The notes under the pieces were generated by a model, which saw nothing but the letters and a program-made list of their open reading frames with translations, did no database searches and was not told the DNA's origin. From the IMG/VR virus record IMGVR_UViG_3300032233_002657, positions 117,490 through 181,489 of that record: a stretch of DNA of 64,000 nucleotides; one strand, written 5' to 3'. The position numbers were made by a program, and so were the translations under genes. How positions within the stretch are numbered: position 1 is the first letter of the stretch; each line of letters starts with the position of its first letter. This stretch comes from a virus (Duplodnaviria; Caudoviricetes). Shown in pieces: positions 1,218-62,930 of the stretch.

Positions 1218-1414
1218 ACTTTCTTGCCTTTATTCATAAAACTAAAATCAGGCTGCTGATAAGAAACTATCTTAGGCATCTCTATCTCTTTATTTTTAGG
1301 AGTGGAGACGTCTCTACTAATACCGCCGTGAAACTCTTTAACGTGATTTGCCATCTTATCAAAAGGTGAGTCATCAAACATCGACCCTTTGTCCATCATT
1401 CCTTTTACCATCAT
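1214..1414 (-). CDS. Small hypothetical protein
   Basis: 66 aa, ATGA-coupled to both neighbours; contains one copy of the dispersed palindrome. Confidence 0.55.
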   Translation of the reverse strand: MMVKGMMDKGSMFDDSPFDKMANHVKEFHGGISRDVSTPKNKEIEMPKIVSYQQPDFSFMNKGKKV

Positions 1415-2223
1415 AGCCCTTCCTCCGGTATTGTGTAGACTACGTCTGTGAACGGAGCCATTCTTAAATTTACAGCAGCTACTACATTGTATCCTCTCAT
1501 TGTAACTAATTCCGTATACTCATGTACGATATATCTTCTGCCGCTACCTTTATCCCATATCACATCTGTAGCTGCAACTATCACATCTCCCACTACTCTA
1601 CAGTTCTGAACAGTTGATTGTGTTTTTGTTCCCGTGGACTCTATATCTATTTTTTGTGCTTCTGTAGCCACTGGAAGTTCTATAAATATAGGTACAGCGC
1701 TGTAGTAGCCGTTAAGTAGAGAGGTCCCAAAACATACCGGACAGTTACCGTCTATAGCTTCATCTGTTAGTGGGTCAGCACATCTAGGACACCTTTGAGC
1801 TGTTATTTTTCTTTTAAATATTACAGCGGTTTCTAGGCCAGCATATTTAGATAATCTTAATTTTTCTTTTCTTATAAGCTCTCTTACTATTCTCCAAGTT
1901 CTATAGTCTACTCCTGAGTCGGCAGTTATTGTTGTAGAGTAGTAAGTTCTAAGAGCTGTTGTAAGTTTAACTCTGTAGCACCAGTCTAGGTCTTTGCCGT
2001 AAACCCTGCTTTCGTCGTCTATAAGAAACCAGGTGTTAATAGCGGGAGGGCCTATGTTAATAAAGTCAGCAGTATCTGCGGAAGACTTAGCGCCTTGCAA
2101 AGTAAAGTAATAAGGGCCTGGATCAGATATAAGCCGACTAAGCTCCCACTCCACTTTTGTGCCGCCAGAGGGAGAGAACTTTACAAACGTTCTTTCAAAC
2201 ACGTCAATACCTGAGTATGTCAC
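1411..2223 (-). CDS. Putative neck/head-closure protein with Zn-finger insert
   Basis: 270 aa; RCPRC...CPVCFGT..GYY motif within a head-closure-like C-terminal domain; position in head-neck module. Confidence 0.5.
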   Translation of the reverse strand: MTYSGIDVFERTFVKFSPSGGTKVEWELSRLISDPGPYYFTLQGAKSSADTADFINIGPPAINTWFLIDDESRVYGKDLDWCYRVKLTTALRTYYSTTITADSGVDYRTWRIVRELIRKEKLRLSKYAGLETAVIFKRKITAQRCPRCADPLTDEAIDGNCPVCFGTSLLNGYYSAVPIFIELPVATEAQKIDIESTGTKTQSTVQNCRVVGDVIVAATDVIWDKGSGRRYIVHEYTELVTMRGYNVVAAVNLRMAPFTDVVYTIPEEGL

Positions 2224-2546
2224 GGCCTGTTCCTTACCTTCTCAAGGTGCTTGTCGCAGTCCTTAACAATGTCTATATTCCAAGACAAAAACGAGTGCAG
2301 GTGCCCAAAAACAAAATGGCAATATGAGCACAATACTATTAGGTTCGCAGGGTCTAACTCCCTAGTAGGATCTAAATGTACAGGAACCTTATGGTGAACA
2401 ACCAGCTTCTTTGTAGACCCGCATGCGGCGCAGGGCTTACCCTTTGCAAAGTCATCGCGGCACTTGGGCCACTTGCCTGATCTAACACCTAACGCCCAGA
2501 CTAGCGTGTCCATTACTTTTATTTGTATGGACTTTAAAGTTATCAT
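2220..2546 (-). CDS. HNH endonuclease (small, Zn-binding)
   Basis: CAACG...VHHK...NLIVLCSYCH motif; start taken at MITLK (2546), ATGA-coupled to the upstream stop. Confidence 0.8.
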   Translation of the reverse strand: MITLKSIQIKVMDTLVWALGVRSGKWPKCRDDFAKGKPCAACGSTKKLVVHHKVPVHLDPTRELDPANLIVLCSYCHFVFGHLHSFLSWNIDIVKDCDKHLEKVRNRP

Positions 2547-3466
2547 CTGTATCTCCCGAATTCCCCGTAGGTAGAACCGAAAGACCCATCCCATGCTTCT
2601 TTATTTATTTGAACCTTAGTCATCTTGACCCACTTCATATATTCTTGAAGCATCTGATTGCCTATTGCTTCATACTCTTGCGCTTTGTTCTTATCGTCTA
2701 CAGCTATGCCGCCTGCATTGTAAGCTAACTGGTTTCTTCTATAGTGCTTAGCCGCAAGAATATATAGCTCACCCATTATGCCATCAAAAAGAACAGTAGG
2801 ATTGGGGAAGTTAGTGGTATCAAAGAATCTGTTAATCTTAGGCTGCGAAGTATTCCAGTGCTGTACGCAGTGAACCATAACCTCGCATATCTCGGATAAA
2901 TCGAACTCTAAGGTGTTTAGAAGAGGATTGTCTTCAGGAGAGTTGTCTCTAAGGTATACCCTTATTTCTCGAACAGGAGGTAGGCCTCGTAGCCCGTTAA
3001 CCCCAGTGGTATTAAACTGGCTTCTCTCGACAAGTATGTAAAAGTTGGAGGAGTGTATAAGCTCACCAGAAGGAGAGAAAACTCCCCAGTTACCTTCTAA
3101 CACTCCGTTAAGCCCTGTAGCGGTTACTGGTATTTTGGCTCTGACTAAACCAGCGGCGGCGTCTATAAATACACCCTCTACATCGACTAGAGGAGCGTTA
3201 CTAGGGTTGGAAAGAATTTCTCTGGCCCTGAGCTTTATGCTTCCCGAAATACTGGCGCTAGACGAGCTGGAAGCTGAATCAAACCCGCATGTGGAAAAGT
3301 TTATCGGCCTGCCTTCACCGTCGCGCAGTGCCATCTCTATAACTGGAGCCATGCCTTGTGCGGTGGCTACAGCTGGAGTCTTAGTAAAAATAGGACGACC
3401 ATCTACTCGAGTGATGGTGGGCCTTAAGACTAGCTGATCTGCACACTCTATTATGCTTGGGTCCAT
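2543..3466 (-). CDS. Putative head-tail adaptor/neck protein
   Basis: 307 aa; beta-rich N-domain plus helical C-domain (NQLAYNAGGIAVDDKNKAQEY) of the kind seen in large-phage adaptor proteins; Ser run SASSSSSAS. Confidence 0.45.
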   Translation of the reverse strand: MDPSIIECADQLVLRPTITRVDGRPIFTKTPAVATAQGMAPVIEMALRDGEGRPINFSTCGFDSASSSSSASISGSIKLRAREILSNPSNAPLVDVEGVFIDAAAGLVRAKIPVTATGLNGVLEGNWGVFSPSGELIHSSNFYILVERSQFNTTGVNGLRGLPPVREIRVYLRDNSPEDNPLLNTLEFDLSEICEVMVHCVQHWNTSQPKINRFFDTTNFPNPTVLFDGIMGELYILAAKHYRRNQLAYNAGGIAVDDKNKAQEYEAIGNQMLQEYMKWVKMTKVQINKEAWDGSFGSTYGEFGRYR

Positions 3467-3480
3467 TTTGGCTCCATTGC

Positions 3481-9035: not shown

Positions 9036-10472
9036 TTAAGCAAGTTGGTTGTAAGCTACAACCGCTCGGCCATAATGGTATTCTTGAGATTTATCTGCAG
9101 AAGCAGCCTTTAACCACTGTAATTGGTGCATGGCATATGCCTTGGCCAAGTCTTCGTGCTTGGAAAAATCTTCTGCATATTTTTCAAGATTTTTTAGAAC
9201 TGGGCGGGAAGACAGGCCAGATATCACGGCTGACCTAACTCCTATCTCCACACTTCTTACATCTACAGAGTGAGCACTGGCGAACTTAATAGCTTCTGAG
9301 TGCTGTCTCTCAGTAGATATAGTCTTAGATGGATCGGTGGATCTATCGCTAGCTAGCTTTTCAATAGTGGAGACGTCTCCAATCAATTTAGTAAACACAT
9401 TAGGGAGATGGCGCTTAACTTCAGCTGCTATTTTTTCTTGGCCTTTAGCTGATAACCAGTCTTCCAAAGATACAAGAATACCTTGCTTAGCGCATGCTGC
9501 CCAAGGGTAGATCCCGTTTATGGAGCTTTGCTTCCAGAAAGGAAGAGGCTTTACTCTTGCAGATACAACTGCCATAAGGACTGGGCTGCACACTCCAGCT
9601 GATTTCTCTAAGTTAGATAAACTTCTAGCTATCTCAGCTAGTTTTACGGAGCCTTCAGAAAGATCACCGGATAGTATGCTGTCCGATGCTCCTACTCCAG
9701 CTAACTCAGCAAGTTCTGCTCCGCCTACTACGCACAAGCCAGAGGCAGCTTTATAATGACCAACTACCCAGGCTATTCGGTCGGCTGGGCGGTAAACGTC
9801 GCTTATGTCGAACCAAGTCGGGTTCGGGTTATCAACATGAAGAACGTGGCCGTCTTCTGCAACTTTAGTAAGGTTAAATTTGCAACCGCCGTACTTGCAC
9901 ATATCTTCTGTGCAGTACTCATCTCTATTCTTTGCTTTATTGCCGCATCCGGAACACACATCATGGGAAACTCTGCAGGCCATGCTTACGCCCCAGTTGT
10001 CATCCCCCGAAGCTATCTTCTGCATTTCTTTATCGGCTACTAATCCTTTATTTCGATCTGCTGCTTCCTTAGTAGCGTTAAGAGCTACGATGAGCTCTAC
10101 TCGTTTCATCTTATCGTTGAACATGGAAGCCTTAACCATACCGTAGCTTTTTTCAGTGTCTTTGTTTTTGTGGTTTCTGTACCACCGAGCGTGCTTAACA
10201 AAAGTGTCATGGTACTTACGGCAGGTGGCTTCTTTAAAGCCGTCACCGTTGCGGTTAGGGCCGTATGCCTCTGTAGAACCTATAGCAATCATATGAATGG
10301 GTTGTTCGCCTGGCTTAAACTCTATTCCCCTAAGGAGGTGAGCAGCTTCGTCTCCAGCCCTCTTTACAAATGAAGAAAGATCGTGACCAACCAATCCTTT
10401 GGAGGATACTTTAACTATAGAGCTAACGGAGTCTCCGAAGCTCTGCGAGTTAGGGGCTATGATCTTAATCAT
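9036..10472 (-). CDS. Probable prohead (maturation) protease with Cys-rich insert
   Basis: N-half has PNRNGDGF, YRNH (candidate catalytic His) and WGVSMAC (candidate catalytic Ser), followed by CSGCGN..YC; located upstream of scaffold/MCP. The C-half is KxA-rich. Confidence 0.65.
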   Translation of the reverse strand: MIKIIAPNSQSFGDSVSSIVKVSSKGLVGHDLSSFVKRAGDEAAHLLRGIEFKPGEQPIHMIAIGSTEAYGPNRNGDGFKEATCRKYHDTFVKHARWYRNHKNKDTEKSYGMVKASMFNDKMKRVELIVALNATKEAADRNKGLVADKEMQKIASGDDNWGVSMACRVSHDVCSGCGNKAKNRDEYCTEDMCKYGGCKFNLTKVAEDGHVLHVDNPNPTWFDISDVYRPADRIAWVVGHYKAASGLCVVGGAELAELAGVGASDSILSGDLSEGSVKLAEIARSLSNLEKSAGVCSPVLMAVVSARVKPLPFWKQSSINGIYPWAACAKQGILVSLEDWLSAKGQEKIAAEVKRHLPNVFTKLIGDVSTIEKLASDRSTDPSKTISTERQHSEAIKFASAHSVDVRSVEIGVRSAVISGLSSRPVLKNLEKYAEDFSKHEDLAKAYAMHQLQWLKAASADKSQEYHYGRAVVAYNQLA

Positions 10473-14298: not shown

Positions 14299-16677
14299 TT
14301 ACACGTTGTTATCTTCAAGGCTTATGCCTTCATCGGGATACGAGTCTATAGTCTTCTGCTTCAGGAACAATAGTAGATCGCCCATCTGCTCAAACGAGTT
14401 TCTAAGATTATCTTCAAGTTCTGGCATATCCTTCTTACCGTACCGGTCTTCAAACTTATCTTTGTGCCAGTAGAAGCTAAACAAAATCCTACCAATCTTA
14501 TCTAGGCCGCCCATGAGGTCTCCTAGATGTCTATCGACCATAGTGTCGTCTCTAACTGACTTTATAAGAGTGCCTATCATAGAAGTATCAAATACTTCTT
14601 TTTGTCCTGACTGAGCGGCGTTGTATCCTATAGCCATGGTCTTAGGATCAGGTAGCCTAGGGTCGTACAAAGCGGTATTAGACTGAAGCGACGTCCCTGC
14701 CATTGCAGGTATAGCCTGCTGCATAGGGTAAGAAGACTGCACGCTTCCTAAAAGAGTTTGTTCCATACCCGTTGGCTGAGTTGGAAATGCTGGAGCCGTG
14801 GTGCCGCCCATCATGCTTGGGTCCATAGGGTCGCCAGGAGCAGCTGACTTTATTAAGTCTCCTGCGTCTTCTTTTACTGGTTTGTGAATTATGTAGTTAG
14901 CAACCTTAAGGGTCTTAGCTTCGTCTAATATAACTCTAGCCTGCTTTTCTCTAAGAGCTACGTCCCTAACCAAGTGTATAAGCGCGTTCTGTGGGTCTAG
15001 CACTCTGCCGTTAATGCTAACTTCAGAGCCAGTGTGCCTTACGTTTAATGAGGCCGTCTTCTGATAAATAGCATGCTGAAGATCGTTAAGATCGCCTGGG
15101 ACTATAGCCCCATCCCCGCAGCAGCTGTCTCCGCTCAGCTTTACAGCTTTAAAATTGCCAGGAATGTAAAGGTCACCGTTAATAGACTTAATTCTCACAC
15201 CTGGCTTGTCAGTTACATATAAATTCTGCCCTGCACCTATGTGAGACATGCCCCCGCTAAAATCACTATAAGCTCCTTTAGCCACGGCAGGAAGGTACTT
15301 TGGTCTAGCTTGAGAAGCGTAATCAAGGTATCGCACCTTGTAGCCACTAGTGCCGTCAGAATCCCCCATTACCTTTAACACTTCAAACGGAACGCTGGCG
15401 TCGCCGGTTTCACTAACAGCTAAATAGACATTCCCCTTTGATAAAGACGAAAGGCTAGAAAGCTCTTCAAAAAACTTGGCAAAGCTTTGGCCGCTATTTT
15501 TACTTTCAGGAGCGTCTTGGCCCCCATCTCTTGGCGGACGTGTAAACAAGTTACCTGGGTGACTGTTAATCCAGTGCTTCTCACCTGTGTAGTTAACTAC
15601 AGTGGCGAAGTCATGGCGCCCTGAAGGGCCATGAGGCATAAGGAAAATTATGGTCTTAAGCATGGAGAAAGGACAAACTAAAAGATCATAGACACCGGTA
15701 GAAGCAGGATTCTCTATTGAGGTAGGTTCCTGCACTTTGTAAGCGATAGCCGTGTCGTCTTTTGTCCTAGCGTCTCTAAATATAACCCCGTCTGTAAGGA
15801 GTTTTTCCTTATCAGCTTTTGGAGAATCCATAACTCCATCTGAAGAAGCGTTGAAACTTCTGATCATGATGGTAAGGGCTTTCTTTTCCTGAGGCTTAAT
15901 GTATACGTCTTCTTCAGACAGAATACCAGGCTCTGGAATGCTTTTAAGCTTATCGACAGCATTCTTTATAAAGTCAGACCCGTAAACTTTTTCAATAGCT
16001 TCTGCCATCTTTGGAAACTGCTGGCATGTACCTATAAGAGCTTTAACTAATTCTTTAAACGCTTGCTTACCATGAGCTGCTTCTTTAGTAAGAAAAGATT
16101 TAAGAGTAAGGGCGTTATTAAACTTTGGATCGTTGGAAGGATTGGTGCAAGCAAACTTAGCAAAGGATCTTACTCCTTCGCGCATCTCGTCTTTATCTAC
16201 TGCTGATGCAAACTTAGCAGGTGGTCGGCTGAAAGCTTGCAGGTCAGGTGAAAGAAATCCTAGTCTAGCCATGTTCTGATCTGTCTTCTTTCCTAAGCTA
16301 GCAGGCTTACGTCGTAGAATGTAGTTAAGCCAGTTTTCTTTAAGTGGCACAAACTGATCTTGGTCTTTAAGGTAGAGCAGCTCATGGCCTTTAAGATCGC
16401 CATTAATAAAAAATACAGGGGCGTAAAGCCATTGAGGCCCAACCTTAAATCCAAACAAGCCAACAGCTTTGGTGTTGTCTTCGTTGCGTTCCATGAGCTC
16501 GAAGCCTACCTCATAGTCGAGTAGGCCTGGGGCTTTGTCTTTTAGATAGGCATGCGCAAGGTTGCTAAATGCCTGTTCAAACTGAACATCGTTTCCAGCC
16601 CCTCCAAGCTCGGCTTTTTTTACGAAGCCTGCAATAGGTGGGAGAGGGTTCAGAAAACTATTACTTTTGTTGCTCAT
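14299..16677 (-). CDS. Large hypothetical virion protein
   Basis: About 792 aa from MSNKS (16677; GAAGG RBS, promoter just upstream); KxA motifs punctuate it (VKKA, AKFA, TKEA, QKTA, IKSA); contains PMDPSMMGG, shared with ORF 19268-19882. Confidence 0.6.
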   Translation of the reverse strand: MSNKSNSFLNPLPPIAGFVKKAELGGAGNDVQFEQAFSNLAHAYLKDKAPGLLDYEVGFELMERNEDNTKAVGLFGFKVGPQWLYAPVFFINGDLKGHELLYLKDQDQFVPLKENWLNYILRRKPASLGKKTDQNMARLGFLSPDLQAFSRPPAKFASAVDKDEMREGVRSFAKFACTNPSNDPKFNNALTLKSFLTKEAAHGKQAFKELVKALIGTCQQFPKMAEAIEKVYGSDFIKNAVDKLKSIPEPGILSEEDVYIKPQEKKALTIMIRSFNASSDGVMDSPKADKEKLLTDGVIFRDARTKDDTAIAYKVQEPTSIENPASTGVYDLLVCPFSMLKTIIFLMPHGPSGRHDFATVVNYTGEKHWINSHPGNLFTRPPRDGGQDAPESKNSGQSFAKFFEELSSLSSLSKGNVYLAVSETGDASVPFEVLKVMGDSDGTSGYKVRYLDYASQARPKYLPAVAKGAYSDFSGGMSHIGAGQNLYVTDKPGVRIKSINGDLYIPGNFKAVKLSGDSCCGDGAIVPGDLNDLQHAIYQKTASLNVRHTGSEVSINGRVLDPQNALIHLVRDVALREKQARVILDEAKTLKVANYIIHKPVKEDAGDLIKSAAPGDPMDPSMMGGTTAPAFPTQPTGMEQTLLGSVQSSYPMQQAIPAMAGTSLQSNTALYDPRLPDPKTMAIGYNAAQSGQKEVFDTSMIGTLIKSVRDDTMVDRHLGDLMGGLDKIGRILFSFYWHKDKFEDRYGKKDMPELEDNLRNSFEQMGDLLLFLKQKTIDSYPDEGISLEDNNV

Positions 16678-16762: not shown

Positions 16763-17134
16763 TTATCTAGGGCGCATGTTTAGTATGTTCCTAGAAATAC
16801 TTCCACTTTTTAACAAGTCTATAACAATAGCCAGCTTTTCGTTCGTAGCCATCTTAGCATGTTCTTTACCGGATGTGGGAGTGGAGACGTCTCCACTAGC
16901 CGCCGATACAGCCGCAGCCTGATTGCTTACTGGGGGGAGCGCATTAGATGGAGAAAAAGCTGCCGGCATAGTATTCATAGATTTTATAGGTGAATTTGTA
17001 GAGCCTACGCTTTTAAGGTCGGATATTGGTGCGGAGGCCTGAGGGCCGGTTAGCTTGGGAAGAGTTAAATCCTTGGAAGCACTTACAGAGTTGTTTCCAG
17101 ACCAGTTAGCCCATTTATATATGAACGCGCTCAT
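16763..17134 (-). CDS. Hypothetical Ser/Pro-rich protein
   Basis: 123 aa directly after the RNAP beta'-C gene; carries a perfect palindrome copy. Confidence 0.5.
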   Translation of the reverse strand: MSAFIYKWANWSGNNSVSASKDLTLPKLTGPQASAPISDLKSVGSTNSPIKSMNTMPAAFSPSNALPPVSNQAAAVSAASGDVSTPTSGKEHAKMATNEKLAIVIDLLKSGSISRNILNMRPR

Positions 17135-19057
17135 TTAAAGTACACCGCCATTTGATTCGTCCGGAGAAAGAATATTATTTTTAGCCTGGTTTGTATCATA
17201 ACCTTTTACTGGACCTTTTCTACCGAATTCAACCGACTTAGCCAAAGAAGGTACATACGAAGTTCCTTGCTCGTCGCTTATGGCTCCCCTATGCACGGCT
17301 TGAAGGGTAGACTTCCTCAAATTACTTCCTAGCATTCGAGTCATCCAGTCAGGGTCATGCTGCAGGTTTTCTAGACCTCTGACAAAGTGTGCGTCAAACG
17401 GAGCTGGGTTTTTATGGGTAGTAATCTGGTTAATACCAAACTCTTCAAAATCTTTTACCATCGAAGGCTTTATTTTAGTACCTATAGTGTAATGCAAGGA
17501 GGGCTTCTCTAAGTATTGACCAACAGCTGATTTAGGGGTCATGACCTTATGTCCTTCTCGAGGTTCCCAAGAGTTCTCTATAGCGTCGTAAGGAATGACG
17601 TCGTCTGGGGCGTATTGGTTATACTCCTCATTCATCTTTATGTGGTTTATAAGACCCTTAGACATTATCTCTATATTTCGCCTATTGCCTGACATGCCTG
17701 AGTCTTTCATAGCTGTTTTAAAGGCTGTAACGAATTGTCGCCTTCCTTCGCCTATACCTTTAAACTTTGTAAGCTGTGCTGGGTTTGCTATTCCGTCAGA
17801 CAGCATGTCTCCTGCCTCTACGTTGTCATGCAGTTTCACAGTTAGGCCTACCTGAGGATTAACGTAATGGTCTATGCCGTCAATTCCTATAAACATGCCG
17901 CCGGTTGGAGCAGGCTTGATACTGGTAACCTTTCCATCTCTTTGAGCATGAGTAGCCCAATATGGAGATTGCTTAGGGGATTGCACTAACTGGTTTAGGT
18001 GCTTAAAGCCAGACACAGCCCCTGCGGCTCCGGCTACTCCGCCTGTGTGCTTGGAACTAAGCTGACCTTGGGATATAGGTTCAGATAAAGCCTGCATGGC
18101 GGCTATGCCTACTGAATCACCTGAAGGAGCTAGGCCGCCTCTTTCTCTTACGCCTAGGTCTTTAGAGTAGACCCCACCATCCGCAGCCCCAAAAGCTACA
18201 GGGCTTCTTACTACTATTCTCTTTAGTCCTTTAGCCTTGAGATCTTTAAGAACTCTAGGAGACAGCAAAGTATTCCTGCTGTAGCCCCCAGCGGACATAG
18301 CAAGAAGGGCTCCCTCGTTATCATCGTCATTAAGGTCTACAGGCATACCCCTATTTTCGCCACGAGTAGGGTCAGGATCATCATCCCCTACTACTATCAT
18401 TCTGTGCCCTACCTGATTCAACTGCTTAGAAAAGAACCCGGCGTCCATGGTAGAAAACTTAGTATCTGAAACGCCTTTTCTAGCACCGAATGTGCCTGCA
18501 AAGTATTCAGCTGGGTTTAGCCCTTTAGAGTATGAATTGAATACAGGTATAGGAATCGGGTTATCGTGATGATCAGTGTATAGAAGATCTCCGCCTCTTA
18601 AGCTTTTTAAATTCATAGCCTTACCCCTAGACCCAGACTGTATCTGACGGGCTAGCTGGTTGTTCTCTCTTATGGAGTCGTCAAATATGCCTTTCTCCAT
18701 TGGCTTCTGTGCGGCATTTAGAAGATCTATCATCTTAGTATTTTTAGCGCCTTCGTCGTCTCTGTTATCAGCCATTATTTTAGCAATGGCTATTCTTAGC
18801 TCTGCTTTGCTGTCTATGGAGAACTTTGATTCTCTTAGATCTTTTAGACCAAATGAAAACCCACCGCTTGAGTAGGAAACGTCTCTGCCTACGTCGTACA
18901 GCTTCTTAGATATGTCTCTATATTTTTCTGGATGTTTTTCAGCTATGAGCTGCATTAGCGCAGTTGAAGCCTTAGAATCAAGCGATCTTGAATAGTCCTT
19001 CAGCTCTTCTGGAAGGGCATCATTAACCATGATCTGGCCCACAGTGGTCCTAAGCAT
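17135..19057 (-). CDS. Phage multisubunit RNA polymerase, beta' C-terminal half
   Basis: TTVGQ start, SGSRG, bridge helix GLNPAEYF..TFGARKGVSDTKFSTMDAGFFSKQL, trigger loop GDSVGIAAMQALSEPISQGQLSSKHTGG; all correspond to RpoC motifs. Confidence 0.9.
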   Translation of the reverse strand: MLRTTVGQIMVNDALPEELKDYSRSLDSKASTALMQLIAEKHPEKYRDISKKLYDVGRDVSYSSGGFSFGLKDLRESKFSIDSKAELRIAIAKIMADNRDDEGAKNTKMIDLLNAAQKPMEKGIFDDSIRENNQLARQIQSGSRGKAMNLKSLRGGDLLYTDHHDNPIPIPVFNSYSKGLNPAEYFAGTFGARKGVSDTKFSTMDAGFFSKQLNQVGHRMIVVGDDDPDPTRGENRGMPVDLNDDDNEGALLAMSAGGYSRNTLLSPRVLKDLKAKGLKRIVVRSPVAFGAADGGVYSKDLGVRERGGLAPSGDSVGIAAMQALSEPISQGQLSSKHTGGVAGAAGAVSGFKHLNQLVQSPKQSPYWATHAQRDGKVTSIKPAPTGGMFIGIDGIDHYVNPQVGLTVKLHDNVEAGDMLSDGIANPAQLTKFKGIGEGRRQFVTAFKTAMKDSGMSGNRRNIEIMSKGLINHIKMNEEYNQYAPDDVIPYDAIENSWEPREGHKVMTPKSAVGQYLEKPSLHYTIGTKIKPSMVKDFEEFGINQITTHKNPAPFDAHFVRGLENLQHDPDWMTRMLGSNLRKSTLQAVHRGAISDEQGTSYVPSLAKSVEFGRKGPVKGYDTNQAKNNILSPDESNGGVL

Positions 19058-24145: not shown

Positions 24146-24148
24146 GGG

Positions 24149-28603: not shown

Positions 28604-28604
28604 T

Positions 28605-31398: not shown

Positions 31399-31405
31399 CT
31401 AGTAT

Positions 31406-38693: not shown

Positions 38694-38763
38694 TTTTACT
38701 CCGACCGGGTATTAACCCGGCTATGGGTTACACCGAACTACCAACATTGGAGACGTCTCCACT

Positions 38764-39477
38764 TTACTTCTTTCCCTTTAATTTAGTTAGAGGCCTTTTA
38801 TTTGTATTTTTTTTGCCTAGAGGCTTGGCCACAGGATTCTTAGGTGTAGACACTTTTTTGATAGTGCCCCCAGACCCTGGAAAAATAGGTGCAAGAAACG
38901 CTGGGTCTTTTAGTTTCTCTCTAAAAGCCGCTGGGTCTATGTATTTAACCCCAGCGCCACTACCGGTTTTAAGCTTGTGGAACATGTACTGATGAGTAGC
39001 TTCTTCGCAATTTCCTAAAGGGCACGTGTACACTTTATTTGCTGACGGTCCGCCTGAGTCACTGTTAATGGTGTCAACATACAGGAACCAATTCATCATA
39101 GCTCTGTATGCAAGAAAGCCCTTAATCTGTTCTTTATTAGGCATAGGTTGCGGCGCGCATGGTATGCCCATAACGCATGGCGTGCCCTTACCGCTTAGCG
39201 ACCAAGGGTTCTCTTTGCGATTAAGCCCACCTTGAGTAAGATAGTTATTTGCTTTAGTCTGGGTTAAAGGCTCATAAGGTCTTAGCTGTAGGGCCATTTC
39301 TCGAGCCACCTCGGCCTCGTTATTTGTCCAAGAGTAAATTTGTATCGAATCTTTGTATAAGTCTGGAAGCTTTATTGTATTTAGTCTTCCTGGGCCTGAG
39401 CCAGGCATAGGTACTGTAGTTCCAATAAACTGGTACATTCCACGATATGCCCAATAACCGTTTGTATATATAGACAT
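38764..39477 (-). CDS. Hypothetical protein with basic C-tail
   Basis: 237 aa, GGAGG RBS, ends ...NKRPLTKLKGKK. Confidence 0.6.
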   Translation of the reverse strand: MSIYTNGYWAYRGMYQFIGTTVPMPGSGPGRLNTIKLPDLYKDSIQIYSWTNNEAEVAREMALQLRPYEPLTQTKANNYLTQGGLNRKENPWSLSGKGTPCVMGIPCAPQPMPNKEQIKGFLAYRAMMNWFLYVDTINSDSGGPSANKVYTCPLGNCEEATHQYMFHKLKTGSGAGVKYIDPAAFREKLKDPAFLAPIFPGSGGTIKKVSTPKNPVAKPLGKKNTNKRPLTKLKGKK

Positions 39478-45122: not shown

Positions 45123-45368
45123 CTAGTCAGAGCTTATGAGCATATCCCAGAAGGGCTTATTGGCAGGAGTGGAAGGCTTTCCTCTTCCTAAAGAAGCGTT
45201 CTCTTGGCTTCGGATATCTGAGTTGCGCCAAGTCCAGCACTCACCTGTGTCGTCTTGGAATACTACCCACATTAAGTCGTGGTCTTGACTGTAGTCGATA
45301 ACTACGTGCGCCATTCCTTTTCCCTTTATAGTTATCACTGGAATAGGGGGATTAAGTTGTAAAAGCAT
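45123..45368 (-). CDS. Small phage hypothetical protein
   Basis: 81 aa, AAGGAG RBS; LQLNPPIP...IDYSQDHDLMWVVF..TGECWTW. Confidence 0.65.
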   Translation of the reverse strand: MLLQLNPPIPVITIKGKGMAHVVIDYSQDHDLMWVVFQDDTGECWTWRNSDIRSQENASLGRGKPSTPANKPFWDMLISSD

Positions 45369-45396
45369 GGCAACTCCTTTGGAGACGTCTCCACTA

Positions 45397-46842
45397 TTAC
45401 CTAGGTTGCTGTGACGCTAAGCCTTGCTGGAAGTTTCGATCTAACACACTTTTAGTTCCTTTATTCTTATTACGGCCGCCCATGAGGCTGTTAATACCGT
45501 AAAGGCCTAAGCCACCTAAAGCGGCTACACCTAAGTACTTGGCCCATGGGTTAGCGTTCATCCAATTAGCTACTGGAAGAGAGTATCCAGCTGCAACTCG
45601 TCTGCCTTCGCTGTTAGCTGTGTAGTCGTTAAACTTTGACGATATGGCTCTAGTAACTGGTTTAAGCATATTAAGCCCAAAGGTACCTGTAAACGCCTCT
45701 CCAAGTCCGGAGGCTGTGCTCTTAGCATTGGCTAAAAACTTAACTCTGTCGTACTTTGCTTTTGTCTCTCCGGCGTACCTCTTAGTGTAATCCCACGGTG
45801 TTTCGTCTTTATGCTTCGGTAGGCTCGGCTCGCCTGCAACATATTTATTTAAACTATCCGTAGTCTTGTTTTTAAAAGCATCCCACTTATTACCAACGTC
45901 CGACCAGTTAGTTCTATTAGCATCGTTATTAAGCGTCTGCAGGCTGTCTTGGTTTCCCATAGCGGCGCTAAAAGCAGTTCCAACAGTGCCGGCAGCAGCT
46001 GATGTAGCTTGTGCTGTTTGCTTAGTTTTGTCTGCTGGAGTGAACCAGCTACCTGAGTCTGCTGGCTTAGCTGCTGGCTGAATAGGAGCAGCCGGAGGAG
46101 GAGGCGCTGAAGAAGCACTGGGAGTAGGATTTTTATTCACTGCCGTAGCTGGAGCCGGTGGAGCAGAAGAAGTGCTAGGTGTAGGATTTTTATTTACCGT
46201 AGCAGCTGGCGTAAACGTAGCACCTGGCTGAACCTTATCTTGCTGTATGACCCCTTGAGAAGTGCCGGACGCACCATTTCCTCCGGCTGCTTCAGTAACC
46301 TGTTTGCCTTGATTTTTTAGATTATTCACTTTTTGCTTAAGTTTACCAAAAAACCTTTGGTATTCTTCTCCTGCTGTCTTAATCCCTCTGCTATTGATGT
46401 CTTCCCCAAATACGCTTTTAGTAGCTCTCATCAGAGCGTTCCTAGCCGCGCCTTTTGGAGACACGAACTTATTTCCCCCTCTATGGCCCATTCTTGCTGG
46501 CATAGGCTTAGCTTTTTGCATTCCTTCAGAAGGGTCTGGGTCTACTGCGGACTCTTCTATATCGCCTGAGCCTCTGCCTGGGCTGGTGATTACGGAGGAT
46601 AGTTTTGAAAGAAGGGATTTAGCTGCTGCCTCTTTAATAGGAGAAGGAGCTGCCCACAAAGCACACAGGGCTTTAACGTCATTAAGACCGCTAGCCTTCT
46701 TCTCTGTTTGATCTTCTACATGTTCTGGAAGTTTCTTCTTCCCTGTTGCAGTAGACCACTCATCGCAATCCCATGAGCCTGCCTGGCCTTTGCCTTTAAG
46801 AAGGTAGCATAACTTACGCTGGGAATCTGATTTAAAGGGCAT
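45397..46842 (-). CDS. Multi-module virion-like protein (MPFKS N-terminal motif, C-terminal TM)
   Basis: MPFKSDSQRK start; modules delimited by EKKAS, IKEAA, IKTAG; duplicated VNKNPTPS(T/A)SSAPP; C-terminal hydrophobic helix. Confidence 0.55.
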   Translation of the reverse strand: MPFKSDSQRKLCYLLKGKGQAGSWDCDEWSTATGKKKLPEHVEDQTEKKASGLNDVKALCALWAAPSPIKEAAAKSLLSKLSSVITSPGRGSGDIEESAVDPDPSEGMQKAKPMPARMGHRGGNKFVSPKGAARNALMRATKSVFGEDINSRGIKTAGEEYQRFFGKLKQKVNNLKNQGKQVTEAAGGNGASGTSQGVIQQDKVQPGATFTPAATVNKNPTPSTSSAPPAPATAVNKNPTPSASSAPPPPAAPIQPAAKPADSGSWFTPADKTKQTAQATSAAAGTVGTAFSAAMGNQDSLQTLNNDANRTNWSDVGNKWDAFKNKTTDSLNKYVAGEPSLPKHKDETPWDYTKRYAGETKAKYDRVKFLANAKSTASGLGEAFTGTFGLNMLKPVTRAISSKFNDYTANSEGRRVAAGYSLPVANWMNANPWAKYLGVAALGGLGLYGINSLMGGRNKNKGTKSVLDRNFQQGLASQQPR

Positions 46843-52005: not shown

Positions 52006-53673
52006 TTAAGGTGTGGGATCAGGCAGCTTACTGATTGGTGATGCGGACATGGCTAGAGACTGAAGATGCTGCAAAGCTTTTAGCCTAGCAGCAGCAGCTG
52101 CGGGAGCCATGTAATTAGTGTTGCTGTTCATGATATCAATAGCCTCAGCTGGGGTGTAGTAACCCCTGTTGGAGGCATTCCAGACATCTAAGTTCTTGTT
52201 ACCTCTTCGGCCAGCAGCGTCCGCTAAAACAAAGTGCGTTCTAGACCCAGCAAAATTGCGTTTAATCTTAGCCCTATGAGCATCACTCCAAGGGTGATCT
52301 ACAGGATCAATAGGTAACAACCTCGGGTTCTTAGCGGTAATGCCTGTCTCTTCCTTGAGCTCTCTCAAAGCGGCTACTAGAGGATCTTCTCCTGCTTCAA
52401 TTCCTCCGCCCGGTAAGGCAAACGACTTGTCGCTATCCCAGGTGCCACCATAGATCTTGCCCTTAGGATTTTGAGTGTAAACCTCAACCCTGTCACGCCA
52501 TGGTAGCTCTTCCTTAGTTACTCCCGCTGACTTTTCTTTATTAGCTAACCAAGCCTTAACCGCAGCAATTACTTTAGGGTCTTTTGCGTGGTTTAAGTAA
52601 TGTTGCGCAGGCATCTCCCCTACAAAATCCTCTCCTAAGTATTCATACTCAGGTATGGCATCTACATCGGTGCTCTGTATGGGCGTGACGGATATTGGCT
52701 TCACCGGCATGTGGCTTACATACTCTGTTGACTTATTCCACTTGCCCAGCTCGTTATCCTCTCTATCAATCTTTGTAAATGCAGAGGCTGGAAGTTTATA
52801 TAGGTAACCGCCAGGAGTATGACCAAGCAGTGCTTTACGCCCAGTCTGCTCGTCAATCAGTCTATGATACACGGAGTTTTTTATCTTATCTTTTACAGCT
52901 TGATACTCTGCCGTTGGGTTTGCTGCAAAGGCTGAGCTGGGGGAATCGCCAGCAAACACTACGGGCGCGTTATACTCATGCCCAAATGACTTTTTAGAGT
53001 TGTAGCTGGGATCAAGCGAATCAAATTTCTTACCAGAAGCGTGGTATAGGAAGTCCCTATCCGTAACGGGTCCTTGGCTTAGAATACGCATGTTAGGGTC
53101 GTTAGCTATGTACTCGTGGTGACTAGCCAGCTTACTCACCGCATTATCCTCAGTAACTCTCTTCTTCTTACACCCTACTGGAATATAGAACCCCAGTTGT
53201 GGAGACGTCTCCAATCCGTAGCTCTTCCTGATATCTTCTAAGTCGTTGCTCTTAATAGAAATAGCCCATAGCTTGTCATAGTCACCTGTTGCAGGCAACT
53301 CAACTATTGGGCCAAGAGTGTAGTGATAAGAATGACCTCTCTCAGTGATGTGGCTAGTGCCGCCTAGCTTGTCTACTTCTTCCTTAGTCATGACCTTGAT
53401 AGCGCATTCAGTCCTATTGTTGCGAACTACGAACTCAGCTCCTGGCTCATCTAAGGCGTCAAAGACACCTTTGATAAGCGAAGAGGGCACTGTTAGTTCT
53501 AAGTTACCGCTAGGGCCTGCTTGAAGCCTACCAGCAAGAGCGTGTACAGATGTGTGCTCTGCATTCTTGTTCATAAGACCATGAGCCTGCCCAAACAAGA
53601 ACATCTCAGCGTGAAGAGCTTTGAGCCACTCAGCGCCTTTGATGATGCCTAAGGATAGCGGGGGTATGGTCAT
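52006..53673 (-). CDS. Tri-domain protein: degenerate 2H-phosphoesterase-like / ADP-ribosyltransferase-like / NUDIX hydrolase
   Basis: The NUDIX box GGGIEAGEDPLVAALRELKEETG is unambiguous. The middle domain LYHAS..F..P...VVFA...GYLYKL...EYVS..PVKP is ART-like. The N-domain has 2H-like spacing without the His residues. Likely start MTIPP (53673, TAATG coupling). Confidence 0.7.
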   Translation of the reverse strand: MTIPPLSLGIIKGAEWLKALHAEMFLFGQAHGLMNKNAEHTSVHALAGRLQAGPSGNLELTVPSSLIKGVFDALDEPGAEFVVRNNRTECAIKVMTKEEVDKLGGTSHITERGHSYHYTLGPIVELPATGDYDKLWAISIKSNDLEDIRKSYGLETSPQLGFYIPVGCKKKRVTEDNAVSKLASHHEYIANDPNMRILSQGPVTDRDFLYHASGKKFDSLDPSYNSKKSFGHEYNAPVVFAGDSPSSAFAANPTAEYQAVKDKIKNSVYHRLIDEQTGRKALLGHTPGGYLYKLPASAFTKIDREDNELGKWNKSTEYVSHMPVKPISVTPIQSTDVDAIPEYEYLGEDFVGEMPAQHYLNHAKDPKVIAAVKAWLANKEKSAGVTKEELPWRDRVEVYTQNPKGKIYGGTWDSDKSFALPGGGIEAGEDPLVAALRELKEETGITAKNPRLLPIDPVDHPWSDAHRAKIKRNFAGSRTHFVLADAAGRRGNKNLDVWNASNRGYYTPAEAIDIMNSNTNYMAPAAAAARLKALQHLQSLAMSASPISKLPDPTP

Positions 53674-54209
53674 TAGCACTTCCATTTGCGTAAAGCTTTG
53701 TTGATTCGGCTATCTGGATCATTTGCAGTTTTCTTAGAGGTAAGCTTAGACTTCATTCCGCCCATACGAGCGCAGAAGCTACTTTTTCTAGCTCCGCCTT
53801 CAGGCTGAGGTCTCTTTATATCTTGGCCTTTAGCTTTTAAGCTCTTTCGGCCTTTCTCGTTTAGGCCTCCGTCTGGGTTCTTGCCTTCTTTTCTCTGCCA
53901 CGCAGGAGATGCCTTCTTCTCTGATTCTTTTTCCTTCTTCTTACCCACGGGGCGACAAGAGCCAGAAGTTAAAGCTTTAGTACCTGGTACGCGCTCGTAG
54001 CCGCTCCAGCACTTAGCTTCCTTCTCCGATATCGCTGTTACTTTTTTCCAGTTCTTTGAATCAGGGTAATCTTTGTCTCCAGGCTTTGCTGCAGACTCTC
54101 CTCTTTCTTTTTTGGCTCTTATATTAGCCCATAGGCCTGGCTTGTTAGCTGATGCGGCTAACTTGCCCATGAGTGCTCCAAACTCTGCTGCTTTTTCTAG
54201 TTTGCTCAT
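53673..54209 (-). CDS. Leader-A protein carrying three small basic modules
   Basis: Start MSKLEKAAEFGALMGKLA (54209, AGGAG RBS); modules PGLWANIRAK, CWSGYERVPG..GSC and PAWQRKEGKNPDGGLN..SFCARM each follow a KxA. Confidence 0.7.
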   Translation of the reverse strand: MSKLEKAAEFGALMGKLAASANKPGLWANIRAKKERGESAAKPGDKDYPDSKNWKKVTAISEKEAKCWSGYERVPGTKALTSGSCRPVGKKKEKESEKKASPAWQRKEGKNPDGGLNEKGRKSLKAKGQDIKRPQPEGGARKSSFCARMGGMKSKLTSKKTANDPDSRINKALRKWKC

Positions 54210-60347: not shown

Positions 60348-60362
60348 GGGTTCTCCTTTATC

Positions 60363-62930
60363 TTATCTATTAGCGTTTCTTGCACGTAACTTACGCTTGT
60401 AGGCTACTTCATCTTCTTCGTCATCCTCTTCGTCGTCTATAGGTTTAACTTTCTTTTTAGACCCTAAAGCAGCGGTTATAGCCATTATCGCAGGAATGCC
60501 TATACCTGCGGCTAATAGAGCTTTCTGCAAAGAGGTCATACCTGAGGTTACGCCTGGATTCTTAACTTCTTGTACAGCTGGGGTGTTAGCTTTATCTAAC
60601 AAATTGGCTTTCTCAGCTTGTGACATTATTTGATTAAGCTCACCGACGCTCTTAGCATTAAAAAGCTTTTGTTCTACATACTGAGGGTCATTCGGCTTTG
60701 CTGGGTCAAAGTAGTGCTTTCGGGCTTCGTTGATTGGGTCTATAGACATAGCTGCGGGGAGAGCAAGACCGCCAAGCCTAGACTTCCAAGTTTGGTTCCT
60801 GAGCATACCTGGAGACAAAGAAAGCCCGACGCCTAACGCGCCTGCAAGAGTATCTTTGTTATCGTGATTTACAAAACCATTGCCTTCGTTAGCGTACACT
60901 GCTCCATGAGCTAAGGTGTTATATAAGTTAAACATAGGGTTAGCGTTATAGGCTGCGCCTAAAGTATCCATGGCCAGCCCGCCTACGTTGCCCTTGTTTA
61001 AGTTATCTCTGACAGGGTTGGTAGTGACTGAGTCTAATTTGCTTATGTTGCTTCTGTTAAAGTTATCAACGTTTACAACTCCGCCCAGCTCTCCTTTTAT
61101 TCTGTCGGTTTCAGCCTGCCTCTGCTGTGGAGTAAGGCTTGCGTAAGAGCTCTTTGGGTCATTAACTTTTGAAAGAAGGGCTAAGAGCCTTTGAGCGTTT
61201 TGAGTGTTCTCTATAGATAAGTTGTTCTTATCATCAAGTCGTTGAGCATTGGTATCGTTTTTAGCTGTGTTGCTCGAGAAGGGGTTAAACGCTCTTATAT
61301 AATCCAACAAGTTTTTAGTGGGCTGTATGGCGCCTACTCCAAAGTCTTGCTCCAAAGCTCCTGCAGCGCCACTTCCCCAATACCCTGGGGAGTGTTTAGT
61401 AGTCTCGGAGCCAGCTATGGCTTTAGCTCTATCTACGATAGATTGGTTATGCTCAGCGTCAGCGTAAGACTTGATTAGGTTGTATTGATTTGCAGGGAGG
61501 TTCTTTACCAGAGCCTGCTTGTCTGGAGTAAGCGTTTTTATTCTATCTGCGAGTGGAACAGTGCTTTTAGGGTCGGATAGAAAATGAAATACGGATTGAT
61601 TAGAGGCCCCAGGGCTGTCCATGGTGCCAAGTTCGCCAACTGTCTTATTTTCAAGCCCTGAACGAGCTTGAATAATGCTAGGAGTAAGAGCGCTATTTAC
61701 TTGGCTAATTCCAGAGGCTAAGTGTAGCGGCATATGCTCAAGTGCCTTTACTCTTGTCGTTTCTGGCATTCCCTGAAGCTCTTTAGCGATACTGTTAAGT
61801 CTTTGGAATTCAGCAAGAATCTTTCCTTGTTTAAAGGCTTCTGAGTCTTGCGTCATAGCCTCTGGCCCAGAGATACCTCTGCTCTGACCAAAGCCTGATG
61901 TGAAGTCTTTATCTGTTAGGCCGCCTTTTTGAATCAACCCTGCTCCGTGAAGATAATCTAAGATTTCTGGGCTTATGGTTCGAGATCTTCTAAGAGCGGC
62001 ATCGGAGACTTCGGCTGGGGTAGACTTGTAAGGGCTACTCGACCGAGGTGTCATGTAATTAAAGCCGGTCGGTAAAGAGGCTGTTGGCTTCTTATTGTAG
62101 TAAGGCTCTCTAATTTTATTATAATCTGGATGATTAGGGTCAAACATAGCCCCAGCATCGTTAATTGTCTGAGCGTAGTCTATCTTTTTCTTATTTGGAA
62201 GCTTGCTGTGCCAGTCTTCAAATGCCTTGATGGCGATCGGGTCTGGAGCCGCGTAGTTTATCTTATTATTTTGAGGCTCTAAGAAGTACCTATTAACCAA
62301 ACCTTGAATGTCAGCCCCAGGCTTCAAAGCTTCTTGGGCAAAAGTCTTAGCAGGAGCGGGTAAAGGAGCAGGAGCGTGTGCCCATACTCTTTGGTCATAG
62401 CCTTTTTGAGTGTCGTAGATAGAGCCCGTGTTGCCCACTGTAGGGGCAGGAGCTACAGGGGCTGGGGCTTTGAGCTCAGGTGCAGGCTCTGGAGTCGGTG
62501 ATGGTGCGGGGGATGGGGCTGGGGCTGGCGTAGTAGGTGCAATAGGCGCATCAGCGTTCATGACTTTAGAGGAGAGCTCATCGAAAAACTCTGCGCGCTT
62601 AGTGGAGACGTCTCCACTAGGAATAGGTGTACTACTGTACACATCTCTATTAAAACCTAAATTATTCACGTAAGGAGAATGGGCGTAAGGACTTACGTCA
62701 AATGAGGTGGCCGCTTTATTTAGATTACCATTAGCTTTATTATTAAGCAAGGCAGTTTGATCAAGAAATCTATTATTTTGTGGTGGGGCTGGCAGTGCGC
62801 CTAACTGCCTGGCCTTCATAGGGTTAGAAGATATGTCATTAGAAGATATGGCAGAAGGCTTTAATGATTTAGCATTTCCACCTACAAGGCCTAAGTTACT
62901 AAATACTGCCTTCTTAGTTGTATCCGACAT
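60363..62930 (-). CDS. Large Cys-free protein with Pro linker and C-terminal TM segments
   Basis: 855 aa; NKAA and TKRA motifs early; PAPAP linker; C-terminal hydrophobic helix followed by acidic then basic tail. Confidence 0.6.
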   Translation of the reverse strand: MSDTTKKAVFSNLGLVGGNAKSLKPSAISSNDISSNPMKARQLGALPAPPQNNRFLDQTALLNNKANGNLNKAATSFDVSPYAHSPYVNNLGFNRDVYSSTPIPSGDVSTKRAEFFDELSSKVMNADAPIAPTTPAPAPSPAPSPTPEPAPELKAPAPVAPAPTVGNTGSIYDTQKGYDQRVWAHAPAPLPAPAKTFAQEALKPGADIQGLVNRYFLEPQNNKINYAAPDPIAIKAFEDWHSKLPNKKKIDYAQTINDAGAMFDPNHPDYNKIREPYYNKKPTASLPTGFNYMTPRSSSPYKSTPAEVSDAALRRSRTISPEILDYLHGAGLIQKGGLTDKDFTSGFGQSRGISGPEAMTQDSEAFKQGKILAEFQRLNSIAKELQGMPETTRVKALEHMPLHLASGISQVNSALTPSIIQARSGLENKTVGELGTMDSPGASNQSVFHFLSDPKSTVPLADRIKTLTPDKQALVKNLPANQYNLIKSYADAEHNQSIVDRAKAIAGSETTKHSPGYWGSGAAGALEQDFGVGAIQPTKNLLDYIRAFNPFSSNTAKNDTNAQRLDDKNNLSIENTQNAQRLLALLSKVNDPKSSYASLTPQQRQAETDRIKGELGGVVNVDNFNRSNISKLDSVTTNPVRDNLNKGNVGGLAMDTLGAAYNANPMFNLYNTLAHGAVYANEGNGFVNHDNKDTLAGALGVGLSLSPGMLRNQTWKSRLGGLALPAAMSIDPINEARKHYFDPAKPNDPQYVEQKLFNAKSVGELNQIMSQAEKANLLDKANTPAVQEVKNPGVTSGMTSLQKALLAAGIGIPAIMAITAALGSKKKVKPIDDEEDDEEDEVAYKRKLRARNANR

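Follow-up and report, generated by a model that had tools for sequence, protein, structure and literature searches.

The palindrome and its copies

The stretch of DNA analysed here, the window, forms the final 64 kb of a 181,489-bp IMG/VR virus contig (G000; rated 88% complete). It belongs to an uncultured lake phage, a member of a large uncultured family that carries a fused β–β′ RNA polymerase (RNAP), and an 18-bp palindrome, AGTGGAGACGTCTCCACT, recurs along it. The RNAP and SNF2 genes occupy positions 20657-28603 and 17135-19057. The fusion gene itself (24149-28603, minus strand) joins β to the N-terminal part of β′ in 1,484 aa; the C-terminal part of β′ is a separate gene, and between the two, adjoining the fusion, lies the gene for a 1,162-aa SNF2 helicase. 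The window also encodes a class II-like ribonucleotide reductase (RNR), an AsnB-like amidotransferase and a NUDIX/2H protein. In the contig as a whole, 186 of the 209 open reading frames (ORFs) lie on the minus strand and 96% of the DNA is coding.

An exact 16-mer search of IMG/VR picked out related contigs, five of which (G001, G002, G003, G005 and G006) were taken for comparison. Ten copies of the palindrome lie in the window. The element itself has no strand; the strands given are those of the genes.

1301-1318: AGTGGAGACGTCTCTACT, one mismatch; flanked by ORFs 594-1217 and 1411-2223, unless it belongs to a doubtful 66-aa ORF; 21 nt upstream of a minus-strand ATG; orthologous copies in G001 and G002
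9366-9383: AGTGGAGACGTCTCCAAT; in a 478-aa ORF, 9036-10472 (minus), read IGDVST
16880-16897: perfect 18-bp copy; in a 123-aa ORF, 16763-17134 (minus), read SGDVST; conserved in G001 and G002
27221-27238: weak copy AGTGGAGACGTCTCTAAA, three mismatches; in the RNAP β–β′ fusion gene, 24149-28603 (minus)
32255-32272: TGTGGAGACGTCTCCACT; in a 436-aa ORF, 31406-32716 (minus), read SGDVST
34958-34975: weak copy AGTGGAGACGTTTCCAAA, three mismatches; near the 3′ end of the plus-strand RNR gene, 32808-35069, read VETFP
38746-38763: intergenic copy; directly after the TAA of ORF 38764-39477 and 52 nt upstream of a PhoH-like gene, 38043-38693
45378-45395: intergenic copy; 1 nt past the stop of ORF 45397-46842, abutting the ribosome-binding site of an 81-aa ORF (45123-45368)
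53198-53215: TGTGGAGACGTCTCCAAT; in the 559-aa NUDIX/2H-phosphoesterase ORF, 52006-53685 (minus), read LETSP
62601-62618: perfect 18-bp copy; in an 855-aa ORF, 60363-62930 (minus), read SGDVST; conserved in G005

Positions and sequences agree with a preliminary description of this DNA: ten 18-mers at no more than three mismatches, against 0.01 expected from dinucleotide-preserving shuffles, and seven exact copies of the 14-bp core TGGAGACGTCTCCA, against 0.00 in such shuffles. Equally correct was its account of eight copies inside ORFs, read as GDVST/RDVST (here in the forms (S/R/G)GDVST), VETFP or LETSP, and of two (38746 and 45378) directly after TAA stop codons. One of the eight, at 1301, lies only in the doubtful 66-aa ORF and may be intergenic. 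As hosts it had named RNAP, RNR and a protease; the first two hold, and NUDIX/2H is a further host, while a protease could not be confirmed for any host ORF.

Does the enrichment extend beyond the window? Mapping the motif over the full contig, as the preliminary description had proposed, gave 21 sites, 14 with the exact core and seven with one mismatch in it, and none for the reversed motif. Cores with 0, 1, 2 and 3 mismatches number 14, 7, 2 and 4, where 0.0005, 0.02, 0.4 and 5.3 are expected; the spectrum is all-or-none. About 15 of the 21 sites are deep inside long ORFs, with all three reading frames used, and five or six are intergenic, although only 4% of the DNA is non-coding. The palindrome has no stop codon in any frame of either strand and can therefore be written through genes.

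Conservation at the level of duplex DNA

How are these sites kept in the relatives? G001-G003 are about 70% identical to the contig in DNA and G005 is 87.5% identical; the RNAP protein of G006 is 74% identical. No near-identical DNA was found in the phage collection. Orthologous 18-mers are perfect or nearly so within flanks that are 65-74% identical by BLAST. In ungapped alignments anchored on the motif, identity per position is 0.83-1.00 (83-100%) over exactly 18 bp and about 0.5 on either side. A lack of conservation at orthologous positions or in density had been named beforehand among the findings that would count against a genome-organising mark; the orthologous copies are conserved.

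Single sites illustrate the point. At 9366 the 18-mer is identical in G001 and G002, where its flanks are 65-66% identical; site 32255 is likewise conserved in both, with flanks of 67-68%; and site 53198 is identical in G001, G002 and G005. The intergenic sites 38746 and 45378 are conserved in the same three genomes, and homology blocks stop exactly there. The two weakest copies, 27221 in RNAP and 34958 in RNR, are kept in neither of the roughly 70%-identical G001 and G002; for 34958, conservation is limited to the close relative G005.

We next consider in what form the DNA is read. As single-stranded DNA the 18-mer can fold into a 7-bp stem of only -5.2 kcal/mol, and two AT-rich sister palindromes, described below, reach -0.6 and -1.4 kcal/mol as hairpins. 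The symmetric outer positions 2 and 17 do not covary (Fisher p = 0.79). Variants capable of G-T wobble are distributed about 11:8 between the strands, by hand count of the listed degenerate variants. An early impression from the window, that degenerate half-sites have a strand polarity, was not upheld with six genomes, in which either half may be lost. The lineage palindromes are perfect through their centres (GACGTC, GATATC, AGTACT, AACGTT, CCGG), a symmetry that marks sites where a two-fold symmetric protein reads duplex DNA. Since covariation and polarity are missing, the motifs are perfect at the centre and the sister hairpins are unstable, the constraint falls on double-stranded DNA, not on a hairpin. 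The same observations dispose of a hairpin or cruciform element of the boxB, N4-promoter or REP kind. The array is a clear case of selection on DNA overriding codon choice inside essential genes.

Might the motif have been borrowed from a host, as a parS, Chi or uptake sequence would be? In 596 Gb of GTDB genomes there are 72 matches, two of them on one Solibacteraceae contig and one in every other genome. This frequency is at or below chance, and on that ground a host-derived motif is ruled out.

Spacing and turnover of the sites

The preliminary description had called the spacing semi-regular, and the regularity is real. The coefficient of variation (CV) of the gaps is 0.59 in G000, 0.47 in G001, 0.52 in G002, 0.51 in G003 and 0.46 in G005, compared with about 0.95 for random placement (P from <0.0001 to 0.018), and 0.40 in G006 (P <0.00002); these genomes are related and have many orthologous sites in common, which makes the tests dependent on one another. 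Median gaps fall at 7.3-7.8 kb.

One site has moved between genomes, and the local spacing changed only modestly. In place of the weaker site inside the RNAP gene of G000 (27221), which has no orthologous copy in G001 or G002, these two have a site about 3.1 kb away at the junction of the SNF2 and RNAP genes. The flanking gaps are 10.3 and 5.0 kb in G000 and 5.9 and 8.1 kb in G001. Regions of G001 that have no homolog in G000 still bear sites of their own. Both observations suggest that density or spacing is kept, and not position alone; the single moved site is suggestive only.

A stretch of 20-29 kb free of full sites recurs in distant lineages (G000:C1:66,791-92,268; G025 63,257-92,362; G001 185,048 to 14,861 across the contig ends). 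It measures 20-25 kb in G000 and G001, and in G000 it spans large structural genes, including a 2,468-aa ORF.

Lineage-specific motifs in the wider family

An RNAP profile search of IMG/VR found 352 relatives, many of 190-235 kb and some with direct terminal repeats. The window's motif is not present in the more distant of the family relatives. Other repeated elements were found in them, as follows.

G010 (IMGVR_UViG_3300022723_000184): AAAAAGTACTTTTT; 14 copies; gap CV 0.40, P = 0.0004; 11 of 14 in gene junctions
G012-G014: AAAGATATCTTT; 8-14 copies; intragenic, orthologously conserved
G015: AAAAACGTTTTT; 18 copies; none in five other genomes
G025: AAAACCGGTTTT; 25 copies; mean gap 8.8 kb, one gap of 29 kb
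G008: CTAATAGCGATAACAG, asymmetric; about 19 copies; not evenly spaced
Salmonella phage Arash (OQ632216.1): five near-identical intergenic elements of about 200 bp (loci L075-L079) at about 26.6, 66.4, 100.1, 138.5 and 173.3 kb

The AAAGATATCTTT sites of G012-G014 consist of AT-rich codons within genomes of 58-63% GC, and G025 is a complete genome with terminal repeats and 70% GC. In G008, CTAATAGCGATAACAG occurs in both orientations between co-directional genes and is therefore not a directional signal. Dispersed sites are thus a trait of the whole family, with sequences that are specific to each lineage.

Arash is the nearest cultured relative (RNAP identity 31%). Each of its five elements has an AT-rich core between inverted repeats (CAAACGTTGTAACC...), and their intervals of 33.8-39.7 kb divide a circular map into five even parts (CV 0.075, P = 0.00004). 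RNAP and helicases are packaged in the Arash virion, and the paper that describes the phage makes no mention of the five repeat elements (PMC10585845). The elements might serve as origins, or as entry sites for RNAP from the virion. Being cultured and having evenly spaced elements of its own, Arash could serve as an experimental entry point.

A candidate for the binding protein

If a two-fold symmetric protein reads the palindrome, which one is it? The best candidate is a 302-aa protein (G000:C1:8875-9783, minus strand), whose gene stands about 108 kb ahead of the window in a module for replication and recombination. A Pfam scan matched it weakly to DUF1016_N, and it was singled out separately from phylogenetic profiling; the latter gave 38 clade-specific ORFs, from which the protein is absent because a weak homolog exists in G008. 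Its atlas neighbours sometimes bear an HTH_ParB domain.

An AlphaFold2 model built on five orthologs has pLDDT values of 80-94 over residues 60-170, followed by long helices of low confidence. The top Foldseek matches of the model are all ParB, Noc or Spo0J. With VIA-align, it superimposes on the DNA-binding domain of Caulobacter ParB (6t1f) with Z 9.8 and a root-mean-square deviation of 2.7 Å over 109 aa; Z is 9.5 for Spo0J-parS, 8.4 for Noc, 6.5-6.9 for KorB-operator (1r71) and 5.2 for SopB-18mer. In a search of 48,161 representative chains that was independent of Foldseek, only ParB-parS and Spo0J reached Z >=8, and KorB-operator ranked fifth. At the level of fold, the protein is predicted to have a helix-turn-helix (HTH) DNA-binding domain of ParB/Spo0J/KorB type at residues about 35-175. 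It continues into a C-terminal coiled coil and a basic, lysine-rich tail; the lysine enrichment is strong in the G010 and G015 proteins, while the G000 tail is more mixed.

The preliminary description had called for a search for co-occurring ParB or HTH genes. This candidate is what the search yields, without the parts that accompany a ParB elsewhere. Only about 35 residues precede the DNA-binding domain, so the protein has no CTPase domain; the ParB CTPase family (PF02195, ParB_N) has no match in the contig, which is 88% complete, whereas control genomes were matched. A ParA-type ATPase (PF13614) was found in none of seven family genomes, five of them at least 90% complete, and in 14 of 14 control genomes.

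About 110 ORFs were scanned against Pfam and PHROGs, with no further DNA-binding candidate. Three further genes were considered and set aside. An HNH endonuclease (window 2220-2594) is weak as a cognate enzyme, being absent from the complete genome G008; it is clade-restricted by tblastn, was detected inconsistently by HMM and was flagged by Pfam among the 38 clade-specific ORFs. It weakly resembles the phage HNH endonuclease of PDB 5h0m, a type that we take to be terminase-associated. The 81-aa ORF just downstream of site 45378 has no obvious DNA-binding character, and the 237-aa ORF that holds site G000:8445 looks like a GT2 glycosyltransferase.

Does the candidate vary with the motif? The predicted recognition helices compare as follows.

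G000, G001, G005: helix DKSTVYKTITF, identical; strict TGGAGACGTCTCCA; the proteins of G000 and G001 are 51% identical overall
G006: helix DRSTMYKTIKF; the same motif, relaxed, with one or two mismatches at many evenly spaced sites
G010, G015, G025: helix type (T/D)-x-LY-x-(L/Y)R(D/N) in common; An-core-Tn palindromes whose cores differ
G008: helix TKAVLYTHQQV; asymmetric CTAATAGCGATAACAG

The recognition helix varies along with the motif. Moreover, homologs of the protein exist in G010, G015 and G025, and each of these genomes has its lineage palindrome upstream of the gene, at a distance from the start codon of about 35 nt in G010 (likely GTG), 17 nt in G015 (ATG) and about 100 nt, or up to 108, in G025 (ATG). 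From the counts of sites and genes, the joint chance of three such placements is about 3 in 10,000, supposing that every site precedes some gene.

Interpretation of the array

We tentatively favour, at somewhat under even odds, the reading that a dimeric ParB-fold protein docks on the palindromes and organises or gates the phage chromosome as a whole. The phage would encode a protein whose two-fold symmetric dimer docks with high affinity on each duplex palindrome, the 302-aa protein being the best candidate. About 21-26 such sites, one every 7-8 kb, would mark the entire chromosome of roughly 200 kb. The docked dimers might bridge or tether DNA through their coiled coils and basic tails into units of roughly 8 kb, which would compact or anchor the replicating genome in the manner of the RacA-ram or Noc-NBS arrays. 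Sites beside gene starts would double as operators.

The preliminary description had likewise proposed sites for dimeric, chromosome-organising proteins, with parS, Noc and SlmA among its models. The DNA constraint, the type of site and a ParB-fold candidate agree with that proposal; membership of ParABS, Noc or SlmA does not. Its list of possible roles ran from segregation, condensation and packaging to ejection pacing, translocase loading and self-recognition; a regulatory role like that of KorB, which it did not include, is equally compatible with the data.

Several points weigh against a docking array served by this protein. The binding of the motif by the 302-aa protein, and every downstream role with it, looping, compaction and tethering included, is something that we infer. 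The fold match is moderate, helical proteins can reach Z scores of 8-10 by chance, and against the PDB a profile of the protein's sequence gave only coiled-coil noise from its C-terminal part. Such proteins usually conserve their HTH helices best, and some of the co-variation is to be expected on that account. The window's own clade has no site before the binder gene; the nearest is a conserved site about 430 bp downstream of its stop. A homolog went undetected in 17 of the 24 other family genomes, 12 of these being at least 90% complete, and the AAAGATATCTTT lineage yielded none, two of the three genomes searched there being incomplete. The reading does not account for the conserved site-free stretch of 20-29 kb.

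A wider form of the reading, which we regard as rather doubtful, is that throughout this family of lytic phages of about 200 kb, which have a virion-type multisubunit RNAP, a CTPase-less ParB-fold protein and its lineage palindrome co-evolve and divide the chromosome into even units of about 8-15 kb, selection acting on spacing and not on exact position. If so, this would be a previously undescribed way to organise a phage chromosome. A true pairing of protein and palindrome would make it possible to test how the chromosomes of jumbo-size phages are organised, replicated or gated in the cell. It would also supply a natural set of orthogonal protein-DNA pairs, based on five or more different palindromes of 12-18 bp.

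Other roles for the sites

Could the same protein and sites serve mainly for genome-wide control of transcription, with operators at gene starts and roadblocks or insulators within genes, for example as a temporal switch? We consider this unlikely, though it has more behind it than the other roles below. The palindromes of G010 that lie in gene junctions stand just ahead of start codons, and a palindrome just upstream of the binder gene in three lineages looks like autoregulation. Several of the intergenic sites of G000, themselves in excess of the non-coding share, abut ribosome-binding sites. The palindrome is the only strongly repeated word save for a handful of terminator-linked motifs, in a phage that has its own RNAP and in whose contig sigma70 region 2 was not detected. 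KorB (PMC11790492) and the stoperators (PMC9283540) offer precedents. However, no more than 30-35% of sites stand 150 nt or less ahead of a following gene start (16% of random positions do so), an excess that arises because sites prefer the scarce non-coding DNA. The remaining 65-70%, about 70% in the clade, are more than 150 nt away, which bears out the preliminary description's view that most copies are not at promoter positions. A lytic phage would also need to transcribe through about 15 intragenic roadblocks, the 302-aa protein has no CTPase clamp domain of the kind behind KorB's long reach, and regulation alone predicts no even spacing.

Less probable again is that the sites start replication or recombination, either as origin-like places for loading a symmetric initiator or helicase or as programmed nicks or breaks for a T4-like, recombination-dependent replication; with evenly spaced sites, replication would take less time. 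Symmetry, independence of orientation, tolerance of intragenic positions and turnover at a kept density all fit origins, as do the AT-rich, inverted-repeat-flanked elements of Arash at their 33.8-39.7-kb intervals. The contig encodes a UvsX-like recombinase (G000:C1:11,932-13,155), Rad50/SbcC-like (27,474-29,633) and Mre11/SbcD-like (31,380-32,510) proteins, SF2 and DnaB-like helicases, a DnaG-like primase and a polymerase, and the binder gene lies within this module; a match to a T4 endonuclease V-like glycosylase (16,063-16,530) is weak and below the Pfam cutoff. That glycosylase aside, the UvsX-like and Rad50/Mre11 set is a T4-style toolkit for recombination-dependent replication. A clade-specific HNH nuclease also exists, as noted above. 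On the other hand, 80-85 sites have neither a switch of GC or AT skew nor an AT-rich flank, although short replicons in a phage might leave no skew, and this speaks only weakly against origins. No site-specific nuclease is tied to the motif, the HNH enzyme being missing from complete G008, and no related contig ends at a site.

It is improbable that the palindromes are short conserved linkers at which related phages recombine (mosaic junctions or cassette boundaries), like the PeSL elements of T4-type phages, or that they are selfish mini-elements. Homology blocks do end within 60 bp of 9-23% of the sites, several exactly at the site, compared with 2.5-5% of random positions, a roughly fourfold excess, and left-right jumps in identity are commoner at sites in some genome pairs (Mann-Whitney U test, p = 0.007 for the best pair). 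In G001 and G003, pairs of sites about 500 bp apart flank different small genes. But the effect is weak and inconsistent (p 0.007-0.6) and is confounded by the preference of sites for intergenic DNA beside variable genes; most sites lie mid-gene and are conserved, with homology on both sides. Selfish spread fits neither the even spacing nor the strict purifying selection.

The two site pairs (G001 106,710 and 107,240; G003 74,329 and 74,806) occupy the same genomic place, and the arrangement resembles a swappable cassette. The gene bracketed in G001 encodes a 136-aa protein with two H-x-T motifs that looks like a 2H phosphoesterase.

Finally, it is very improbable that the sites act as RNA hairpins (in processing or antitermination), as N4-type cruciform or single-strand hairpin promoters or as plain promoters or terminators for the phage RNAP: the 18-mer can form the stem described above, nearly all genes are on one strand so that every copy is transcribed, and the phage has its own RNAP, but covariation and wobble or strand bias are absent, the loop is itself palindromic in every lineage, hairpins of the sister motifs are unstable, the asymmetric G008 motif stands in both orientations, most sites are mid-ORF with flanks that are not conserved, and no T-run follows them, hairpin-plus-T-run terminators being found elsewhere in the genome.

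Comparison with known systems

We now return to the docking array and ask which known systems it resembles. The closest structural matches to the candidate are those of ParB-parS and Noc-NBS (6t1f, 6s6h, 4umk, 7nfu, 6y93; Z 8-9.8). ParB and Noc bind as dimers to perfect palindromes of 14-16 bp that are often intragenic; Noc sites are dispersed over the chromosome, whereas parS sites cluster near the origin. We know of no parallel to a regular spacing of 7-8 kb. The phage palindrome, perfect over 14-18 bp and present in 21 copies, has the dimensions of a ParABS centromere site (about 16 bp). The candidate differs in having no ParB_N CTPase domain, no ParA and no similarity at the sequence level. 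Noc combines its CTPase domain with an N-terminal membrane-targeting helix; in the phage protein there is no ParB_N domain, and the N-terminal 35 residues are modelled at low confidence.

KorB, of the IncP plasmid RK2, has a ParB-fold DNA-binding domain to which the model also aligns (1r71). RK2 carries 12 palindromic operators (OB) round the replicon, not known to be evenly spaced and some of them far from promoters or intragenic, and KorB regulates its own operon. G010, G015 and G025 have a palindrome at the regulator's own gene; the window's clade does not. Sliding of KorB depends on its CTPase domain, and its locking on KorA (PMC11790492). The phage protein differs in having no CTPase domain; no search was made for a KorA-like partner. 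Because the defining CTPase domain and partner proteins are absent, the phage system is not a member of ParABS, KorB or Noc.

The DNA-binding domain of RacA from Bacillus subtilis is of the MerR winged-helix type, in contrast to the ParB fold of the candidate. Its ram site, a GC-rich perfect palindrome of 14 bp (TGACGCCGGCGTCA), occurs at about 25 dispersed places that cluster around the replication origin of the cell chromosome, and RacA is an HTH protein with a C-terminal coiled coil that also binds DNA non-specifically, compacts it and tethers it (PMC4914108). Published sites of the ParB superfamily and of RacA are palindromes of 13-16 bp bound by dimers (PMC11790492, PMC4914108). The phage array resembles RacA-ram in its dispersed palindromes and in the HTH and coiled coil of its candidate protein; it differs in that its sites evenly span a whole lytic genome and are mostly intragenic.

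Stoperators, which are oriented with transcription, offer a likeness in that a single short site recurs many times along a phage genome, with one phage protein acting genome-wide. In the temperate cluster A mycobacteriophages, dozens of copies of this short asymmetric site are read by a monomeric immunity repressor (PMC9283540). The sites described here differ from them as perfect palindromes without polarity, and no tyrosine integrase (PF00589) was found in the contig.

The homologous regions (hrs) of baculoviruses are palindrome-bearing elements dispersed over a large viral genome and bound by the dimeric viral protein IE-1, and serve as enhancers and putative origins. They are non-coding clusters of longer, imperfect palindromes; the phage sites, in contrast, are single 18-bp palindromes embedded in genes.

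What is already known, then, is that ParB-like proteins bind dispersed palindromes on bacterial chromosomes and plasmids. New here are the spacing rule, the embedding in genes and the occurrence in a lytic phage with a genome of about 200 kb. Of the literature searched, only two unrelated papers on the magnetosome protein MamK contain the motif. In the literature searched, an evenly spaced, mostly intragenic array over the whole genome of a large lytic phage is undescribed, and so is the divergence of motifs between sister lineages alongside a candidate binder.

Other features of the phage and its relatives

Besides the replication genes, the rest of the contig encodes several glycosyl- and methyltransferases. 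A family search of the contig found no GyrA or topoisomerase IV. The intergenic regions have no dominant promoter word. Hairpins with a T-run, each followed by TAGCTATCAG, stand at G000:C1 about 720, 1113, 65070, 152562, 154056 and 181472 (in the window about 35073, 36567 and 63983). The word TAGCTATCAG is repeated in G002 and G006 too, and the combination may be a joint terminator and restart signal.

By k-mer counts, the next most repeated words of G000 after the palindrome are of the CAAGGnnnTCAAGG type, for example AAGGCGATCAAGG and CAAGGAAATCAAGG; their probable source is coding DNA with internal repeats.

Short contigs binned with bacterial metagenome-assembled genomes (MAGs) bear the exact 16-mer: L099 (Pirellulales MAG contig JBIIOM010000081.1, 10.6 kb) and L142 (Flavobacteriales-binned, 4.8 kb), both labelled Lake Mendota, and L124, a Pirellulales MAG contig. 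They may be misbinned fragments of the window's phage clade, or a hint at its host.

G010 carries at 151,507-152,216 a run of 11 direct repeats of type GTCTCATCTTCTAAACCGATGAGCAGGTATTACGAT with a period of 72-74 bp (and one gap of 56 bp), and single copies of the same type at 124,152 and 136,040. The run looks like a CRISPR or guide-RNA array carried by this related phage.

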